A stretch of DNA of 54,620 nt, the filler included, from Basidiobolus ranarum (Eukaryota), in NCBI GenBank assembly GCA_040143965.1. It is 2 parts of 2 records of this genome, joined end to end, with 100 filler letters (N's around TTAATTAATTAA, not from the genome) between each part and the next. Parts side by side here need not be neighbours in the genome. Positions count along the whole stretch, not along the records: positions 1 to 27,315 come from JASJQH010006999.1; 1 more part is not named here. One strand, written 5' to 3'. The notes under the pieces were generated by a model that had not been told where the DNA came from, made no database searches, and saw only the letters and a list, made by a program, of their open reading frames with translations. Of this stretch, positions 18,383-32,496 are shown in pieces. The translations under genes and the position numbers were made by a program. Numbering within the stretch: the stretch's first letter is position 1; the number at the start of each line of letters is the position of its first letter.

Positions 18383-19736
18383 ATGAACCAGCATATTCCT
18401 GCACAGAACTTACAAATTCCCCAACAGATTGAGGTGGACAATGGCACACCACAAACTCCCACGTCACCTACTTCTAGTGAAAGCCCCTCTAACAAATCCT
18501 CTCCTTCTCCAAACGTAAAAATCATGAACAACAACTTTGTGCACAAATTGCATGGGTAAATATGAACTTGATTCGAGAATTTTTGCCTAGTCTCTTCTAA
18601 CATGAAACCTTTTTTTTCAAGGATGGTCATTGACAAACAATACCAACATCTTATCTCATGGAATTATTCTGGCACCTCATTTATTGTATGTAACATTATG
18701 GAATTCTCCAAAGAGGTATTACCAAAACATTTCAAGCATAACAATTTCTCAAGTTTTGTTAGACAACTCAACATGTAAGTGGTAGTTTATTTGAAAGCTG
18801 AGTATGAAGTAGTTGAACTTATTTTATTTCTCTTGAAGGTATGGTTTTCATAAAGTGAACAAATCCCCCAGAGGACACCGAACCCTAGCCGAGAATCAAA
18901 TTTGGGAGTTTTCGCACCCAAAGTTTTTACGTGGTCGCCCTGACTTATTGGATGACATCAAAAGAAAAGCAATGGAGTCAGAAACTCTGAGAAGAGAGAC
19001 TGGTGACTTACATGCCCATATTACCATGATGCAAGTAACTCAATCAGATATGATGCAAAGAATCGCTCACCTCCAAGCAAACTTATCTGAGGTGGTTCGA
19101 GAGCTTACTGAGACAAGAAAACGCCAGTCGATGCAACAACAAATGATAAAGAGTATGATGGATCATCTTCACCAGCAAAATCCATCCGTTCCTGGTGAGT
19201 CAATTAGTGACAAAACCTTCCATGTATGTATTGAGTTCTAATGATCGATTTATTCATCTATAACAGTGTACCCTACCGGTATGAATAGTCCAAACATCAA
19301 AAGCGAGGGAGATAGGCCACCGATTTATATCACCAGCCCCGAAGGATCCAACAATATGGTGCACAATATGCAACTTAATATACCAGCTAACGGACAAGTT
19401 CAAAGCCATGGGAATAGTCTTCAACCGACTCCCACCATGCCTAACCCCCAGACGTTTCAGCAAAACACGTTCAATCGTAGCGGGTTGCAAATTCAAATTG
19501 GCGCCAACTATTTAAATCAACCCAATGCAAATACCATGGTACCAACCCAGATGTCTCCTGAAAACTTCCACTCTTTTAACCAAACCATGAATCCCTCTTT
19601 ACCCCCATCGCCCCACTCACCTCTAGGTATTGTCTCTGACGATGACCTCAATAGCCCCATCTATGGCTCTAACCCACACAACCACTTCCGTAATCCTGAT
19701 TATGGAAGTGAAGGTCAGACACTATTCAACATGTAA
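18383..19736 (+). CDS. HSF-type DNA-binding transcription factor; 4 exons
   Basis: Spliced [72 protein letters not shown], then a coiled coil and an N/Q/P-rich tail. Confidence 0.93.
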
Positions 19737-20411: not shown

Positions 20412-21845
20412 TCAAGCCAAAATGAAGTATGAATATATGGCAATGAAGAAAATCGTGCTTAAAGGTACACTGTAGCTTGATGTGTTGGAGCTTTGAGTAG
20501 AAAAGTTAACCAGACCTCTTTTTTCAAATGAAACTGTGTTAGAAGTGTTATCTCCAGTATCCTGGGAGTCGTCAGTCGAGGCACTAGCGTCATCTGAGCT
20601 AGAATCATCTCCAGCATCGTCCGAGTCATCGGTTAGGGCACTAGCGTCATCGGAGCCGGAATCGTCTCCGGTATCATCTGAGTCGTCAGTGGAGGCACTA
20701 GCGTCATCTGAGCTAGAATCGTCTTCAGTATCATCCGAGTCATCAGTTGAAGCACTAGCGTCATCAGAGTTGGAATCGTCTTCAGTATCATCTGAGTCAT
20801 CAGTGGAGGCACTAGCGTCATCTGAGCTAGAATCGTCTTCAGTTGAAGCGCTAGCATCATCAGAGTTGGAATCATCTCCGACATCATCTGAATCGTCAGT
20901 TGAACCTGAGTCAGAAAGGACAGTTGTACTGCTACCACTAGAAGAATCAGAGTTAGTGGTATTCATGCTCAAATTTTGATATGGCGGCAAGTTGGCGCAT
21001 TCGTAAGCAAGAACGAAATGGAAATTATACTGAGATAGAAGTTGTGCTATATTGGGTGTCTGCTCGACAGTGTCTATATAAATATCATGTTGTAACGAGA
21101 CAAATCCAGGATCGTTATGAGCGTTAAGATCAGTACCATTAAGTATAGCTGTCTTAAAAGAATCTAGGATAAGGCTTGGATCTTCATTCTTCTCTGAAAT
21201 ATCCCAATCCAGAGTATCCATGTTCCATAGCAAAGTATGATATCCCATCGCTTTGAAGATTGCTTTAACACGATCGTCTGCTTCACCATAGGGAGGACGG
21301 ATATATGCAGGTTTCGCACCAGTTATGTTAAACAGAGTGTCCTCAGTAGCTTTTACCTCGGCGACAATCTGAGCGTTTGAGAGAGACATCAAATGTGGAT
21401 GCGACCAGGTATGGGAGGCAATCTGATGACCCTCGTCATATGCTCTTTTAACTACATCTGGGAATTGAATCACATTCGAACCGATCATTTGAAATGTGGC
21501 TTTAACATTTGCTGCCGCAAGAATGTCGAGTAATTGTGAAGTATACTGAGATGGACCATCATCAAATGTTAGAGCCCACTGTCCAGCTTGACAACCATAG
21601 ATATCATCTGGTAAAGCACAGTTTCCACAAGTCTCCCAGCAGTTCTCGCAGTCCCCGGGACCGCATTGAGAGGTTGGGCAGGTACCTGATCCTACTGGTC
21701 TGGGCGCGATATCAGGAACACTCGAGAGATCATATTCACTAACCCAGGCAGGATTAATTGTGGCCAAAGTAGTAGACTCTGCTTCTTGGGCGTGGGCTAC
21801 TTTGATTAGAGCCAGAAGAGCTAGTGAAGTAAGTTGCAAATGCAT
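20412..21845 (-). CDS. Secreted, probably GPI-anchored chitin deacetylase (CE4/NodB) with an acidic Asp/Ser repeat stalk
   Basis: Signal peptide, Cys-rich N-terminus, TFDDGP, HTWSHPHL, RPPYG, DTLDW and LQHD motifs, hydrophobic C-terminus. Confidence 0.93.
   Translation of the reverse strand: MHLQLTSLALLALIKVAHAQEAESTTLATINPAWVSEYDLSSVPDIAPRPVGSGTCPTSQCGPGDCENCWETCGNCALPDDIYGCQAGQWALTFDDGPSQYTSQLLDILAAANVKATFQMIGSNVIQFPDVVKRAYDEGHQIASHTWSHPHLMSLSNAQIVAEVKATEDTLFNITGAKPAYIRPPYGEADDRVKAIFKAMGYHTLLWNMDTLDWDISEKNEDPSLILDSFKTAILNGTDLNAHNDPGFVSLQHDIYIDTVEQTPNIAQLLSQYNFHFVLAYECANLPPYQNLSMNTTNSDSSSGSSTTVLSDSGSTDDSDDVGDDSNSDDASASTEDDSSSDDASASTDDSDDTEDDSNSDDASASTDDSDDTEDDSSSDDASASTDDSDDTGDDSGSDDASALTDDSDDAGDDSSSDDASASTDDSQDTGDNTSNTVSFEKRGLVNFSTQSSNTSSYSVPLSTIFFIAIYSYFILA
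20550..20900 (-). repeat. Coding tandem repeat, about 6 x 57 bp (DDSDDTEDDSSSDDASAST)
   Basis: Visible in both the DNA (gcactagcgtcatc...) and the protein. One unit is shortened. Confidence 0.9.
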
Positions 21846-23552
21846 GGCTGACTTTGAGAGAACAAGTATTAAATGCTGCTGGATTCCTGTGGAAGTATTG
21901 CTACTTCAAGCGGCTTTTATACTATTTTATCGCGTCCATGTAGCTGTTCATAAATTTCAGAATAATCAAGACTATTAATGTTCACCATTAAGCCCAAATG
22001 ATTTCTAGCTTGAGAGCTTAGCGTCAAGGCATTGTTGATTGAAACCATGATTCAGTTATTTTTGGAATGATTTAGTTAATCTTAGAGATTGGACATTCTT
22101 ACCTATATATTTTAGCCAATAACTAATCTGGTCGCACTAGATTTATGTTGTGCAGATGTTACCAAGTTTACCACTTCCCTCTCAGACAAAAATAGATGGA
22201 AGGAGAGAGTTGAATTTACTTGTTGAATTTACCATCGATTTGATCATATCAGTGTAACCAATATCAACCTGGCATTCATATGAGATACTTCCCTTTTATG
22301 GTAAAATGTTAATTTAATAAGGACAAGTATTTAGCCACTAATTATCTTTCAGGAACAAAATTCCAATTTTCTAGACCAAGTCCTCAGACCTAACCCTCAG
22401 CACGCTTTTGGCGGAAGTACAGCGGCTGAAAAAGAGCACATGACGAGAGAGAGCACATAACGAGGAAGACACTGGACAACGGCATTAAGCCAGCCTCGAG
22501 TGATGATATAATGATTGATATAAACGAAACGTCACTCCATAAAAAAATCGGAACAATGGTTTTTCCAATATGTAAAGTAATTAATTAGATTTGAATCGCT
22601 TCAAGTGAAAGGAGTTCAGAAAATTGATAATGAACGCTGAGACAGATTCCAGAATAATAAATATTCATGTAGGATTGGTGATATAGCCATTAGCTTGAGT
22701 TCATATCGGGAATGACATATAAACACTCTGGAGAGTTGGATTTGCCTTTAGTGTATTATTGCACAATACATGTAACCAACCCAGCAGATATTGATAAAGT
22801 ATTTGGCTCTAGGGGATTGAGGAGGTTAGGGTTAAGTTAGTATTAGGGTTAGGGTTAGTATATAATATCGAATAATCTAAACTTCTCCGAAAGGTTTAGT
22901 TGCTTTAATCTCTGCTCCATATTGAGTGAGAAATGTGCTTTAATTATTTTATGAAAGGTTTTGAATAATATTCCATTTGTTGTAAACAAGCTTAGTTAGT
23001 CTACGTTGGAGGTTTCCACCTATAAGACTTTTACCGCTTAAATTTACGCGAAATGTTGGCTATATGGGTTAGGTATATATATTCTATTCAGATACTAAAA
23101 TTAGCTCCATCGGTTACGTGTTTAACTACGTGTCATAATACTCAATTCAATCTTATATGCTAGACTGAAGGTTGTTTCTAGAAAGATCGATAATATCATA
23201 AAATTGAGCCTCCATTTGGATTGAAATTCACGAAGAATAAAATTAACGAACTTTTTTGGCAATCCTTGAGCGTTGATTTTGGACACCAAATGAAAAAAAC
23301 ACTAATCAATCAATATCATGGTGATCTTCGTTTTCTGAGCATTAATTAGATCAGGGTAGTTCATGATTAGACATGGGTTAAGAAGAAAAAAATTCTATGG
23401 GATTCTAACGTTTACTTCTGGTTTAGAGAAATTTTATCAACTCTGTTATGAATAAAAGCAAAGCATTGAGCTGCTAAATCGTTACATTCTTGTCTTGTCC
23501 ACAAGTTTCCAACTTAAAGGTGAGTTTCATATTTTCTTTTACCTTTGGATGT

Positions 23553-23674
23553 ATATGCGGTATGAAGAAAACCATTTTTGTCTTCAACCTGTCTTATCGA
23601 TCATGAAGATACATTACAAATGCCCTTCGCTGAGGGCGTTTCATACTTGCCAGTATATACCACTGACCGCATAT
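23553..23674 (+). ncRNA. Box C/D snoRNA, snR190-like, copy 1
   Basis: C box ATGAAGA, D' TCGA, C' ATGAAGA, internal GCCCT/AGGGC hairpin, CTTGCCAGT motif, D box CTGA, terminal stem atatgcgg/ccgcatat. Intronic and upstream of U14. C/D class is firm; the family name is inferred. Confidence 0.75.
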
Positions 23675-23851
23675 CATCTTCGCAAAAATCTCCCCATTTC
23701 CATTGTCACTTTTATTAACAATTTATTAGCCTTCCTACAGATATGAGCATCCATCCATGAACTTAAGAACTGAGCAATTGTTCAAACCATCGCAGTCGTA
23801 GTATTCCGTTTGAAATGGTGAGTACTTTCCTTCATTTATCTGATTATTCTC

Positions 23852-23965
23852 GCGGTATGACGAAAAATATTTTTGTCTTCAACCTGTCTTATCGATCATG
23901 AAGATACAATACAAATGCCCTTCGCTGAGGGCGTTTCATACTTGCCAGTATACTTTACTGACCGC
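23852..23965 (+). ncRNA. Box C/D snoRNA, snR190-like, copy 2
   Basis: C box ATGACGA to D box CTGA, stem gcgg/ccgc. Core nearly identical to copy 1. Confidence 0.75.
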
Positions 23966-24150
23966 ATTATTACTTCGCAAGAAGCTTACCCTTTTCCATC
24001 CGCACCATTACTAATAATCCATTAGTTCACTTTTAGACAAAATGAACAATCCTGGTTGAAACCCCTTCCATCCGAGCTCCACGTAAACATCAGGTGAGTC
24101 TTGTGAATCCAATGGGTTGTTGGTTTCTGAGTTTGGTGTATTGTGGTGAG

Positions 24151-24279
24151 AGTGCAATCGGAATGACGAAAACCATTTTTGTCTTCAACCTGTCTTATCG
24201 ATCATGAAGATACAACACAAATGCCCTTCGCTGAGGGCGTTTCATACTTGCCAGTATACTTTACTGACCGTATTGCACT
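24151..24279 (+). ncRNA. Box C/D snoRNA, snR190-like, copy 3
   Basis: C box ATGACGA to D box CTGA. A different but still pairing terminal stem, agtgcaat-cgg/ccg-tattgcact. Confidence 0.75.
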
Positions 24280-24582
24280 TGAGCTCAATCACGCTCCGAA
24301 ACAGATGATTTCAGTAGCGAGTGAATGAACCGGTTGCTAACGAATATTCTTTGATATCTAGATATGACTACTGTATATAATATCCACTCTGATTACCTCG
24401 GTGCTATACGTATGCATTAATTTGCCGTATCTCAGAACTTTGTACCTATTCTGCTCTGCTTCCACGAATACAGCGGTTAACTGTAACTATCCGACTATTA
24501 TAAGGTGAGAATCAGGTCAATTTCAACATTGGCATATTGAAAGCAGTACTTGGCAGTGAAGCAAGAGCAGTAGTAGCTTCAT

Positions 24583-24672
24583 TTAATGATGAAAAACCAA
24601 TACCAATTCGCAGTTTTCACCGAAGGATCGAAAGATCCGATGCTGGTATTATCTTCCTTGGATGTCTGAACC
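24583..24672 (+). ncRNA. U14: U14 (snR128/SNORD14) snoRNA, copy 1
   Basis: C box ATGATGA; domain A TTCGCAGTTT (antisense to 18S AAACUGCGAA); Y-domain hairpin GGATCGAAAGATCC; domain B CTTCCTTGGATGT plus CTGA (18S Cm414 guide). Confidence 0.95.
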
Positions 24673-24924
24673 CCAATGAAAGCTACTACTACTACTGTAG
24701 TGTCCTCACTGTTTCTTGTGCTATTCACAGCTGATGCTTCAAGTATTTGTCGAATGACGATGACTAATATTTTGTTGCTACTATAGATATTCATTGTTAC
24801 GATCAAAACGAAAGGACCGTTTGCAATGTCGAAGCTTCCTTCAGTCAGTGAACCGTAGGTAAGGCACATTCCACCATATTTGTTGTAGACCCAGCTGGTC
24901 TAGAATGTAAGGATGTGTGGCATC

Positions 24925-25014
24925 TAAATGATGAAAAACCAATACCAATTCGCAGTTTTCACCGAAGAATCGAAAGGTTCAATGCTGGTATAATCTTCCT
25001 TGGATGTCTGAACT
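24925..25014 (+). ncRNA. U14: U14 snoRNA, copy 2
   Basis: Same boxes and domains as copy 1. The hairpin varies as GAATCGAAAGGTTC and still pairs. Long complementary intronic flanks. Confidence 0.95.
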
Positions 25015-25243
25015 AGATATTCACACACTTACATTCTTGACTTTGTCGAGTCAGATACTGGATGTTGTGACAGAGAACTAATAATGATTATTTCCGCTTC
25101 TAGATATTCATGACTTGGTCGTTGTAAATATGTACACCAGTATGACCCTCACCTTGAGCTCACTTCAAATGGTAAGCTATTTTTCAAAGATCTGTAAGAC
25201 AGCGCAGAATACAGAGTTTGTATGTGTGTTGATTTGATGGCAA

Positions 25244-25324
25244 TCATACAATGATGAAATCAACCAAAATACAATAGGAAGTGCCGTCCGATTATCAGTG
25301 ACGATGAATGGTTCCCTGAAATGA
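25244..25324 (+). ncRNA. U49: U49 (SNORD49)-like box C/D snoRNA
   Basis: ATGATGA...AATAGGAAGTGCCGT-CCGA (D')...GTGACGA (C')...CTGA. The guide is antisense to LSU CGGCUCUUCCUAU and matches the U49 guide as I recall it. Confidence 0.8.
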
Positions 25325-26345
25325 CAACCACATGCACACGTACATTTCAGACTCTGTATTTGTGGGTGTAAAGAGAAGAGCAATGACTAATGTTGATTTG
25401 TTTCTAGGTACAACTGCAATTTTGAATGTGCTGTGCTGAGCTGTATATTATTGTTAATAAAAAACTTTTGAACATAATTTATGACTTCTATCAAGCGTCT
25501 GTTAATCAGTCTATATACTACAATATTCTAATGGTATTCAGATCTCCTGACATTACATTCAACCATTTCATGGTTTTACATTTCATGGTTGAATATGGCT
25601 TGTATATCGTTTGTAGTTAGTGAACGCTTCCCTACAACTTGGGAACATCTGAGAATCATCGATTTATACTACTCCAGAGAAGTATGCCATTGACAGCGGA
25701 AGGTTTGATAGGGATTGTATTCTAAGTCACATCATCTAACCCGTCTACCAGTGATTTATACTACATCTATCCATCCAATTTATCAATTACATATTATGGA
25801 TACAGTCGTTATTGTTGGGATACCTGACTAGCATGAAATTGCTCAAAAGCAAGCCAAGAATCCAAATAAAACTTAGGAAATTAATGATAAAATCGAAATG
25901 TAATTAAGAGATTATGTTAAAGCCAACAAAGCTACTGTTTCTGTGAAATTGATTCCACAGTAAAGGTTTCTTTGAGATGAATAGTTCGACATATATTAAA
26001 TTTATGTTGGTTTCAAAGGGATGTTAATGGCAAATAGCAATCGAAGTTAGGTATAGTTTGGTTGAATTCATTTATTGATTTTCATATCGGATTTCAACTC
26101 AGAAGGAATAAAAAGTCAAACAATGTGAATCTATTGAGATGTATGAGTTCATTTTTCTAGTATCGAAAGAACAATCCACTCCATGGTCAGTCTAGTATGA
26201 AATAGAGGAAGGATAAGGAGACAGACAAACACAAAGTTATTTAAGAGATGAAAAAAGAATGGGATAATTTCAACTAGTAACAAGGAAATATTATGAAATT
26301 CAAAGCTATATTTAACATAGATATGTATCAAGCACATTTGAAGGA

Positions 26346-27420
26346 TTAAGCTTTCTTAGGAGTAGGTCTGTAGACACCAACAACCAAAGCATGATCACGT
26401 TCATATGGTTCAAGAGTAAGTTGTTCTTGGGGCTTAATGCGTTCTTGTTGAAGCTTCTTGACTTCAGAAGCGAATACCTTGACAGCCTCAACGGTGGAGT
26501 CAATGCAGTTAGCCTTGATGGAGATAACAATGTGTCCTTCAGTCTTCAAGAAGTTGTGAGCGTTCAAAGCGATGATACGAGCTTGATCAGGTTGAGCAAC
26601 ATCGGCGAATACAACATCCACTAAGTCGATAAGCATACGATACTTGTGGGGATGACGAGCATCTTCAATGATGGGAATAACGTTGGTGCGCTTCTTAGCC
26701 ATGTTGATCAAATCACGACCGGAACGGTGAGAGAATTCAACGGCATAAACGATACCCTGGGGTCCGACGATATCAGCAACGTGAGAGACGGTAGTACCAC
26801 TGGAAGCACCGAGGTACAAAACTCTGGATCCAGGAGCAATGTGAATGTTATCAACACCACCCAAGATACCAGCAGCCAACTTGGAACGGAAAGGATTCCA
26901 AACACGGTATTCAGTTTTAACACCATCAGCACCTTCAACGGAAACTCTCTTCTCACCATAAACAGATTCTCCGGGGGTCAAATTCTTGGTGACCAAAAGA
27001 TCTTCCTTACCACGGGCAATGAAAACACCAGCATGTCTGTGAGGTTCAACAACAACCTTGAAACCAGGCTTGGCACCACCAGCACCACCGCGACCACCTA
27101 TGCATATATAGGGTAAGTTATGGAAATTTTATATTGAATAAATCATAGAAAGTACTTACCACGGGCACCACCACGGCCTCCACCACGAGCACCACCGCAA
27201 ACTCCTAAGCCACCACCAGAACAGCCGCGACCGCAACCACAAACAACACAAAACACACCTCGAAATAAACAACGAAAAAAACAATAAACAACGCGTGCAC
27301 CACCGAAGGAAAAAANNNNNNNNNNNNNNNNNNNNNNNNNNNNNNNNNNNNNNNNNNNNTTAATTAATTAANNNNNNNNNNNNNNNNNNNNNNNNNNNNN
27401 NNNNNNNNNNNNNNNACCAT
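26346..27420 (-). CDS. NOP1: Fibrillarin, rRNA 2'-O-methyltransferase; the 5' GAR exon is interrupted by an assembly gap
   Basis: [34 protein letters not shown] and [16 protein letters not shown]-coding exon beyond intron 27098-27159. Probable ATG at 27420-27418. Confidence 0.97.
27317..27415. other. Assembly gap: N-run containing an artificial TTAATTAATTAA all-frame-stop spacer
   Basis: N x43, then TTAATTAATTAA (27360-27371), then N x44. Confidence 0.95.
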
Positions 27421-31434: not shown

Positions 31435-31920
31435 TTACTCTTCTTTGGTAAAGCTAACAAAACCCTTACCTTCATAACCCTCGGAAGAAATACCTGTGAG
31501 AGGGTTGGCCTTTTGCTCCTTCATTCTTTCGTTGGTAGCCTCTTGCCACTCCTTAGTGAAAGTGTGAGGAGTAGGCTGACCAGCTTGACGAATCAACTGG
31601 AAGAGACCAGCAGAAACAGCAATAACAGCGAAGACACCAGCGTAAACTTTCTTACCATCTCCTTTCTCTAAAGGAGCCTTACGAAGTCCATGGGGACCAA
31701 AAGCAATCCAATAGGCTGCCTTCTTTTGTTCCAAGTCCAAAGCTTTCCAGTCACCCTTTTGAGCTTCCAAAACCTTGTTATAGAGACTGGCTTTCTCTTC
31801 TTGAGCAAGTGTCTTCCAGGAGCTTTGAAGGCTGGTGAAAGTGGGCACGGAACCAGTAGTGGTGGAAGCAGAACGAGTCAAAGACCTCTTAGCGTTGATG
31901 GAAGCAATTCTGAAGAGCAT
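31435..31920 (-). CDS. COX5: Cytochrome c oxidase subunit IV family (fungal Cox5)
   Basis: Mitochondrial presequence, KGDWKALDLEQKKAAYWIAFGPHG, one TM segment, TFTKEWQEATNE and QKANPLTGISS. Confidence 0.95.
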   Translation of the reverse strand: MLFRIASINAKRSLTRSASTTTGSVPTFTSLQSSWKTLAQEEKASLYNKVLEAQKGDWKALDLEQKKAAYWIAFGPHGLRKAPLEKGDGKKVYAGVFAVIAVSAGLFQLIRQAGQPTPHTFTKEWQEATNERMKEQKANPLTGISSEGYEGKGFVSFTKEE

Positions 31921-32496
31921 GACCTGAATAACTTATTGGTTAAAGAGAGATGGGTAGTATGTGTCCAAAGTAGGGGAAGTTAAAAAAAAGGTGGGGTATG
32001 AATGTTACTGGATACAGTCGGAAATTGGCCTCTCGAAACATGAAAGTGGCTATATTTACATGGATTTTATATGATTCAGATGAGGGTTGATGATATTTCT
32101 CTTGACATCCCTCCAGATTTTCTATGGGATTTCTCAACAATACCCTAATTTTTAAGGTTCCTAGATTGCCCCATTTCTTGTCCATTCATCTCTTCCCTAC
32201 CCTAGTTTTGGAAATATTTAATGTGTTTCTTGAGGAGACTGAGCGTAGGTAATCCAAGAATTACGATAATAAATTTCAATCATTGTAGTGCAGTGTAATG
32301 TAACACTTGATGAAAATTCATTCAACAACGGGTTGAAAGTGCCATTGACTACTATCTACTATGAAGGAAAGTAAGATTTAATCATGGGAACAAATATTGA
32401 CACTGGAGGAATTTTACATGGTATCGTAAGCTGCTGTTAGGTATATGCATATATGTATGTATAATGGATATGGAAAATGGCGTGTGCTTTAAAATT

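Follow-up and report, generated by a model that had tools for sequence, protein, structure and literature searches.

A triplicated C/D snoRNA of the snR107/snR190/SNORD12 family in a putative non-coding host gene of Basidiobolus ranarum

Three direct repeats in Basidiobolus ranarum DNA are paralogous C/D snoRNA genes of the snR107/snR190/SNORD12 family and ordinary members of it. The family was already known; the triplicated member is new, and it is neither a retargeted nor a novel guide. The DNA analyzed was a stretch of 54,620 nt, filler included (the window), joined from two parts of two records of assembly GCA_040143965.1; positions 1 to 27,315 come from JASJQH010006999.1. The three copies had the family match, boxes, and terminal stems, lay beside U14-like genes between intron signals, and had a pairing geometry that was worked out against the large subunit (LSU) rRNA of other organisms. 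Probably, each copy is a family snoRNA in a separate intron of a non-coding host gene and serves as a chaperone or placeholder through two antisense elements, with methylation weak or lost.

Three copies of one family snoRNA

The repeat unit of ~120 nt occurred as three direct copies at 23557-23699, 23852-23994, and 24158-24300, with offsets of 295 and 306 nt. In a three-way alignment the 105-nt body from C box to D box was 92–97% identical among copies, while the flanks (215–245 aligned columns) were just 29–49% identical. Nine body columns varied: position 5 of box C, two nucleotides after C, two nucleotides after C', and four nucleotides of the spacer before D. None of them fell within the upstream antisense element (ASE1, before D'), D', C', the internal hairpin, or the downstream antisense element (ASE2, before D), all of which were invariant across copies. 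The core shared by every copy consisted of GTCTTCAACCTGTCTTATCGA and of TACTTGCCAGTAT, the latter followed by the variable 4-nt spacer and CTGA. The invariance of ASE1 across the three copies shows that it is constrained in its present form; it does not tell which target the element has.

Every copy was predicted to fold with its C and D boxes drawn together by a terminal stem, which had 9 bp in copy 1 and 5 bp in copy 2; the stem of copy 3 had 12 bp and a single bulge. The stem letters differed between copies 1 and 3, copy 3 having the longer stem in different letters, and pairing was retained. Fold z-scores were −3.75 (copy 1), −4.45 (copy 2), and −5.33 (copy 3). A 10-bp hairpin followed C', and the copy 1 fold contained a possible internal stem, GUCUUCA/UGAAGAU. 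A preliminary description of this DNA had proposed a triplicated C/D snoRNA with an invariant core and terminal stems that differ between copies yet still pair. All of this was borne out, by the three direct copies and their Rfam matches, by the unchanged GTCTTCAACCTGTCTTATCGA and TACTTGCCAGTAT, and by stems of 9, 5, and 12 bp in different letters (z −3.8 to −5.3).

Against Rfam 15 all three copies matched RF04328, the “Fungal C/D box small nucleolar RNA 107 family” (Table 1). Copies 2 and 3 exceeded the gathering score of 44 by 2.2 and 0.7 bits, respectively, and copy 1 fell below it. No match to SNORD12, snR190, or any other C/D model in Rfam 15 was returned for the copies at E ≤ 1. This was the outcome of the covariance-model check proposed in the preliminary description, whose guess of an snR190-type RNA was confirmed by the RF04328 matches and by the retained linkage of snR107/snR190 with U14.

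The D box CUGA and the G-A dinucleotides of box C were intact in all three copies. The C boxes were non-canonical (AUGAAGA or AUGACGA, the variant lying at box position 5), and D' read CUUA, without the G of CUGA. The placement of D' came from the RF04328 covariance-model alignment, in which UCGA directly followed CUUA. Two outside homologues, L034 and L035, were recovered from metagenome contigs through a U14 pattern; L034 matched RF04328 at 29.1 bits (E 0.035), and L035 was recognized as snR107-like by eye. Both had a canonical CUGA at the model positions of the window's CUUA, followed by the same UCGAC motif. UCGA, taken for D' in the preliminary description, is thus the conserved motif between D' and C', and CUUA sits at the D' positions. 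The U14 pattern found no loci in viral contigs, and a motif search for snR107-like genes had no hits in metagenome or viral contigs. With only these two outside homologues there were too few sequences for covariation. A MAFFT alignment of the five homologues misaligned the upstream guide, and the Rfam model alignments were used instead.

Decay offers another account of the repeats, in which they would be intronic duplicates, or snoRNA pseudogenes, without a functional snoRNP. The non-canonical C boxes that differ between copies at position 5 and the borderline Rfam scores are in keeping with it. Decaying copies would, however, be hard to square with bodies far more similar than their flanks and with changes confined to unconstrained spacers. 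The terminal stems changed letters and still pair, and every copy retains the D box as well as both G-A dinucleotides in box C. We consider decay very improbable.

An intronic locus shared with U14

Two U14-like genes lay directly downstream on the same strand, 305 and 647 nt past copy 3. They were 94% identical over 87 nt and, although both fell below the gathering score of 64, the model alignment showed the conserved U14 blocks to be kept. A SNORD49/SNORD65-like C/D snoRNA lay further downstream. Splice and branch-point consensus placed the six snoRNA genes in a putative host gene with six GT..AG introns of 219–282 nt, one snoRNA per intron. Intron signals were GTGAGT/GTAAG at the 5' end, branch points of the ACTAAT/CTAAC type, and TAG or CAG at the 3' end. 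The longest ORF in the 580-nt spliced model was 19 aa, and an AATAAA occurred near 25457, after the last exon. The host transcript therefore looks non-coding, as judged from the gene model, and would release one snoRNA from each intron.

Short repeat families at 24760-24794, 25082-25111, and 25383-25406 corresponded to the ends of introns 4–6, from branch point to 3' splice site (ACTAAT ... TAG). They included the first bases of the next exon, and ATATTCAT was present in two of them. The repetition of intron ends together with exon starts suggests that intron-plus-exon units were duplicated in tandem as the host gene grew.

The order of an intronic snR107 followed by U14 was found in the window and in both metagenome loci. 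In L034 the snR107-like gene was at 207-328 and U14 at 664-776; in L035, on the minus strand, they were at ~822-705 and 522-414. All four genes were apparently intronic. L035 had a further C/D-like gene upstream (~945-880, minus strand).

Other features were noted around the host gene. An exon-sized ORF for fibrillarin, the C/D snoRNP methyltransferase, was at 26346-27128 (−) (PF01269, E 7e-107, profile positions 1-226 of 227). It lay ~0.9 kb past the end of the host gene, tail to tail, which is probably a coincidence. Imperfect TTAGGG-type telomere-like repeats formed a short stretch at 22824-22859, some 0.6 kb ahead of the host gene. At 20415-21845 (−) was a gene for a secreted protein resembling polysaccharide (chitin) deacetylases, with a long tail of Ser/Asp-rich repeats; its nearest atlas clusters were mostly from Mucoromycota, a lead toward a Mucoromycota-like fungus. 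HSF-type (18837-19241) and COX4 (31438-31932) fragments were nearby in the window.

Table 1. Features of the snoRNA locus, with positions along the window.
Feature	Position (strand)	Rfam match	Details
Putative non-coding snoRNA host gene	23430..25480 (+)		Splice/branch-point consensus; six GT..AG introns
Introns 1–3	23520-23740, 23818-24036, 24094-24361
Introns 4–6	24505-24786, 24859-25103, 25172-25407
snR107-family C/D snoRNA, copy 1	23553..23674 (+)	RF04328, 41.0 bits, E 2.2e-5 (gathering score 44)
Copy 1, C box	23562-23568		AUGAAGA
Copy 1, ASE1	23580-85, 23586-92		GUCUUC, AACCUGU
Copy 1, D'	23593-96		CUUA
Copy 1, inter-box motif	23597-23602		UCGAUC
Copy 1, C'	23603-09		AUGAAGA
Copy 1, internal hairpin	23620-39
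Copy 1, ASE2 block	23644-56		UACUUGCCAGUAU
Copy 1, D box	23663-66		CUGA
snR107-family C/D snoRNA, copy 2	23852..23970 (+)	RF04328, 46.2 bits (gathering score 44)	C box AUGACGA; ASE1 23875-87; D' CUUA 23888-91; remainder as copy 1 +295
snR107-family C/D snoRNA, copy 3	24150..24280 (+)	RF04328, 44.7 bits (gathering score 44), match at 24158-24276	C box AUGACGA; ASE1 24181-93; D' CUUA 24194-97
U14 (SNORD14)-like, copy 1	24581..24673 (+)	RF00016, 43.4 bits, E 7.7e-7 (gathering score 64)	Intron 4
U14 (SNORD14)-like, copy 2	24923..25015 (+)	RF00016, 49.0 bits, E 2.3e-8 (gathering score 64)	Intron 5
SNORD49/SNORD65-like C/D snoRNA	25247..25321 (+)	RF00277, 37.6 bits (gathering score 37); RF00571, 33.4 bits	Intron 6

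Antisense elements and their rRNA targets

Pairing was assessed against LSU sequences of other organisms. Thirty loci were fetched from genome contigs with a published LSU primer; 24 were LSU-type and the remaining six were chance matches in bacterial DNA. The set consisted of eukaryotic rDNA contamination from organisms other than the host, none of it demonstrably fungal, and four loci were complete LSUs (L011, L018, L017, and L004). A second primer gave three loci in viral contigs, two with LSU-like stretches of ~80 nt and one without. Several of the eukaryotic rDNAs sat in records labeled as bacterial genomes or MAGs. The L004 LSU carried a group I intron at 2120-2540 (−) (RF00028, 59.2 bits). 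In the L018 LSU (−) the sequence immediately 5' of GAGACAGG was unrelated to that of the other loci, which stopped aligning at LSU position 3034. Since L018 departs from the others directly ahead of the helix 93 motif, whole-rRNA scans were run on L017 and L011. The LSU motifs named in the preliminary description do exist in eukaryotic LSU fragments: CGGGGAAAGAAGAC, the helix 73 strand, was found in 22 of the 24 LSU-type loci and is almost invariant in eukaryotes; UGAGACAGGUU was found in seven of the nine loci that reach the helix 93 site (L012 and L018 differ in its first letter); and ACUGGC occurred once or twice per LSU.

Relative to the family consensus, GUCUUC-UUUACCCGU-D', the window guide (GUCUUC-AACCUGU-D') was 2 nt shorter and had one C-to-U change. 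On helix 73 it formed 6 bp (GUCUUC/GAAGAC), a 2x4 internal loop, and 5 bp (CCUGU/GCGGG, two of them G-U), at −13.6 kcal/mol against the LSU of other eukaryotes. The duplex is split because the window guide is 2 nt short of the family consensus. The L034 guide paired with helix 73 at −22.7 kcal/mol through 13 uninterrupted pairs, and that of L035 at −11.4 kcal/mol through nine pairs shifted by one. These differing duplexes indicate that the upstream element drifts within the family. With D' set at CUUA, position 5 upstream faced the third G of CGGGG, which is the family target site (G2395 of Saccharomyces cerevisiae, G2483 of Schizosaccharomyces pombe); we infer that this G is G2483 because it comes fourth among the 14 nt of 2480-2493. 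The preliminary description had held that the guide differs from the G2395 guide. It does in length, by 2 nt, and its register is still on the G2395/G2483 site.

This register bears on whether the upstream element still methylates. The same family and targets could be retained with ASE1 as an active guide at the G2395/G2483 equivalent, the five D'-side pairs and the GUCUUC/GAAGAC helix placing fibrillarin as in S. pombe and human. The exactly kept register to D', with position 5 on the third G of CGGGG, speaks for such a guide, as does the invariance of ASE1, D', and C' in three copies whose flanks diverged. In S. pombe, snR107 is described as methylating efficiently with the degenerate D' CCUA (PMC11971394). 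Against methylation stand the break in the duplex right after the target, made by the 2x4 loop, and the two G-U pairs among the five next to D'. Methylation guide duplexes normally have about 10 uninterrupted pairs. S. cerevisiae snR190, with box A and a C'/D' motif, is moreover reported not to methylate G2395 (PMC8536666). The interrupted duplex is not proof of lost methylation, given the efficient modification of S. pombe G2483 with a degenerate D'; by our reading of the consensus the S. pombe guide would also be mismatched next to its target. Overall, an active guide is possible but doubtful. We favor methylation at this site being weak or lost, as in S. cerevisiae, with the chaperone role kept. 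For the 13 nt preceding D', no other canonical target stood out in the L017 LSU, 5.8S, and partial SSU; the best alternative site paired 12 of 13 positions (three G-U), a maximum matched or beaten by 110 of 300 shuffles.

The preliminary description had proposed instead that the upstream element was retargeted to the helix 93 strand (UGAGACAGGUU), either as a chaperone bridging several strands of the peptidyl-transferase ring or as a guide for a new methylation in the area of the A2602 equivalent. The complementarity itself exists: AACCUGUCUUAU can pair with GUGAGACAGGUU over 12 bp including two G-U, and with one bulged U the duplex extends to 15 bp (about −20.5 kcal/mol), the top duplex for the C-C' spacer in L017 and L011. 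The match is also peculiar to the guide as it stands in this organism and is absent from L034 and L035. Shuffled guides, however, did as well, which places the match at chance level. The run was equalled or bettered by 264 of 1000 dinucleotide shuffles of the whole C-C' spacer (LSU plus SSU) and by 114 of 1000 shuffles of a 23-nt part of it; by duplex energy, the real spacer reached −20.9 kcal/mol against −20.2 ± 1.9 for shuffles, with 50 of 150 equal or lower. Because D' is CUUA, four of the 11 nucleotides of the proposed helix 93 guide are box nucleotides, and of the 16 guide nucleotides engaged in the 15-bp duplex, nine (bulged U included) belong to D' and the family-wide inter-box motif, whose conservation has other causes. 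Pairing with the helix 93 site covered only 7 nt upstream of the true D'; the best run for the 13 nt was 7, and 1000 of 1000 shuffles reached it. The D' chosen earlier would, in addition, leave only ~2 nt between D' and C'. For a site near the A2602 equivalent the element did not have the form of a canonical guide, the true D' lying inside it. The helix 93 guide is therefore not upheld, its run using box nucleotides and being attained by shuffled guides. The proposed methylation at A2969 is not supported and rested on the misplaced D', since +5 from CUUA faces the G2395/G2483 site, and the idea of retargeting arose from the wrong D' and chance matches, ASE2 being letter for letter the family block. 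A role at helix 93 in any of these forms is highly unlikely.

A third strand, ACUGGC, had been proposed near position 2820 as a partner of GCCAGU. We rejected it as a chance hexamer, since a 6-mer should turn up about once in an LSU. Paired with the ASE2 block it reached −13.2 kcal/mol, within the range of the listed sites (−11.8 to −15.4 kcal/mol), and among the four listed sites it ranked third in L017 and L011 and first in L018, falling outside the top four in L004 and L031. This ordinary rank of a 6-mer weighs further against the helix 93 reading, and the ASE2 block of S. pombe is described as pairing with domain I, 333-343.

It is equally far-fetched, in our judgment, that the 2-nt deletion and the C-to-U change represent a lineage-specific remodeling, in which a weakened hold on helix 73 was joined by a gained helix 93 pairing of 12–15 bp, so that one placeholder shields two strands of the peptidyl-transferase center as well as domain I.

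The downstream element was the more uniform of the two. The 13-nt ASE2 block, UACUUGCCAGUAU, was identical in the three copies, L034, L035, and the Rfam consensus, and ended 6 nt from box D. The domain I site was variable in the four LSU loci from other organisms that carry it (L004, L017, L018, and L031). There the block's pairing at the site was fourth-best in L004 and outside the top four in L017, L018, and L031, as it was in L011. That ASE2 is aimed at domain I is suggested by its identity with the family block and by the text on S. pombe; the extent of the family ASE2 and of box B was taken from the text of the papers rather than from their pairing diagrams. An invariant ASE2 beside a drifting ASE1 fits S. 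pombe genetics, in which ASE2, and not ASE1, is needed for the 60S subunit.

Relatives and proposed role

S. pombe snR107 is described as a C/D snoRNA of 107 nt, encoded in an intron upstream of U14, and as the orthologue of snR190 and SNORD12/B/C (PMC11971394). It has CCUA as D' and UGACGA as C'; six conserved nucleotides separate the two, and C' is followed by a stem-loop (PMC11971394). The antisense element preceding D' (ASE1) has its complement in 25S 2480-2493 and guides Gm2483, the counterpart of G2395 in helix 73 of S. cerevisiae; the one preceding D (ASE2) has its complement in 25S residues 333-343, which carry no methylation, and is needed for pre-rRNA processing and 60S production (PMC11971394). 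The window copies resembled snR107 in their covariance match, in being intronic in a putative non-coding host directly upstream of U14, in a degenerate D' (CUUA) and C' (UGAAGA), in the D'-C' motif and the stem-loop after C', in an ASE2 equal to the family consensus and set back from D, and in an ASE1 that, on the LSU of other eukaryotes, faces the helix 73 strand in the same register. They differed in occupying three consecutive introns, whereas S. pombe has a single copy in the mamRNA intron, and in an intronic and duplicated U14. ASE1 was 2 nt shorter, with an interrupted helix 73 duplex, and the C box (AUGAAGA/AUGACGA) departed from consensus. The meiotic Mmi1/Mei2 scaffold role of S. pombe snR107 is a fission-yeast feature.

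S. cerevisiae snR190 is reported to pair with helix 73 through box A and with domain I through box B, to act as a chaperone or placeholder rather than to methylate G2395, and to be capable of pairing box A with C' in an internal stem (PMC8536666). It is cut by Rnt1 from a dicistronic precursor and is not intronic (PMC11971394). The window copies shared with it two antisense elements (putatively for helix 73 and domain I), the position upstream of U14, the possible internal stem, and, likely, a chaperone or placeholder role without methylation. They differed in being intronic and in having RF04328 as their only Rfam match at E ≤ 1.

In human, SNORD12, SNORD12B, and SNORD12C likewise form a set of three paralogues, placed one intron after another in the non-coding host gene ZFAS1; the human copies differ in guiding 28S Gm3878, in a small ASE2, and in having no U14 linkage in that description (PMC11971394). 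Since the window copies are near-identical, their triplication would have arisen independently of the human one. No literature on snR190 in Mucoromycota was found.

Taken with the observations above, the window snoRNA most likely works like its yeast relatives, as a placeholder or chaperone. Each copy would be released from its own intron of a host transcript that also carries two U14 and a SNORD49/SNORD65-like snoRNA, and the RNA would bind early pre-60S rRNA through both antisense elements. The downstream block UACUUGCCAGUAU, too far from box D for methylation, would pair with 25S domain I, and the upstream GUCUUC-AA-CCUGU, directly before CUUA, with the 5' strand of helix 73 at the root of domain V. 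Held in this way, the RNA may act as a placeholder or chaperone in large-subunit assembly. Expression of the copies, their assembly into snoRNPs, their pairing with the organism's own rRNA, and the methylation status of the target are what we infer from the locus and the comparisons.

The importance of the finding is small outside annotation: a family known from fission yeast, budding yeast, and human gains a member from a fungus that is probably early-diverging (Mucoromycota-like). Conservation of an snR107-U14 locus with intronic snR107 was described as not evident in more divergent organisms (PMC12508059); the window and the two metagenomic fungal loci extend the intronic snR107-then-U14 layout beyond Schizosaccharomyces. 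If the shortened guide no longer methylates, the family would have lost this activity twice, here and in budding yeast.
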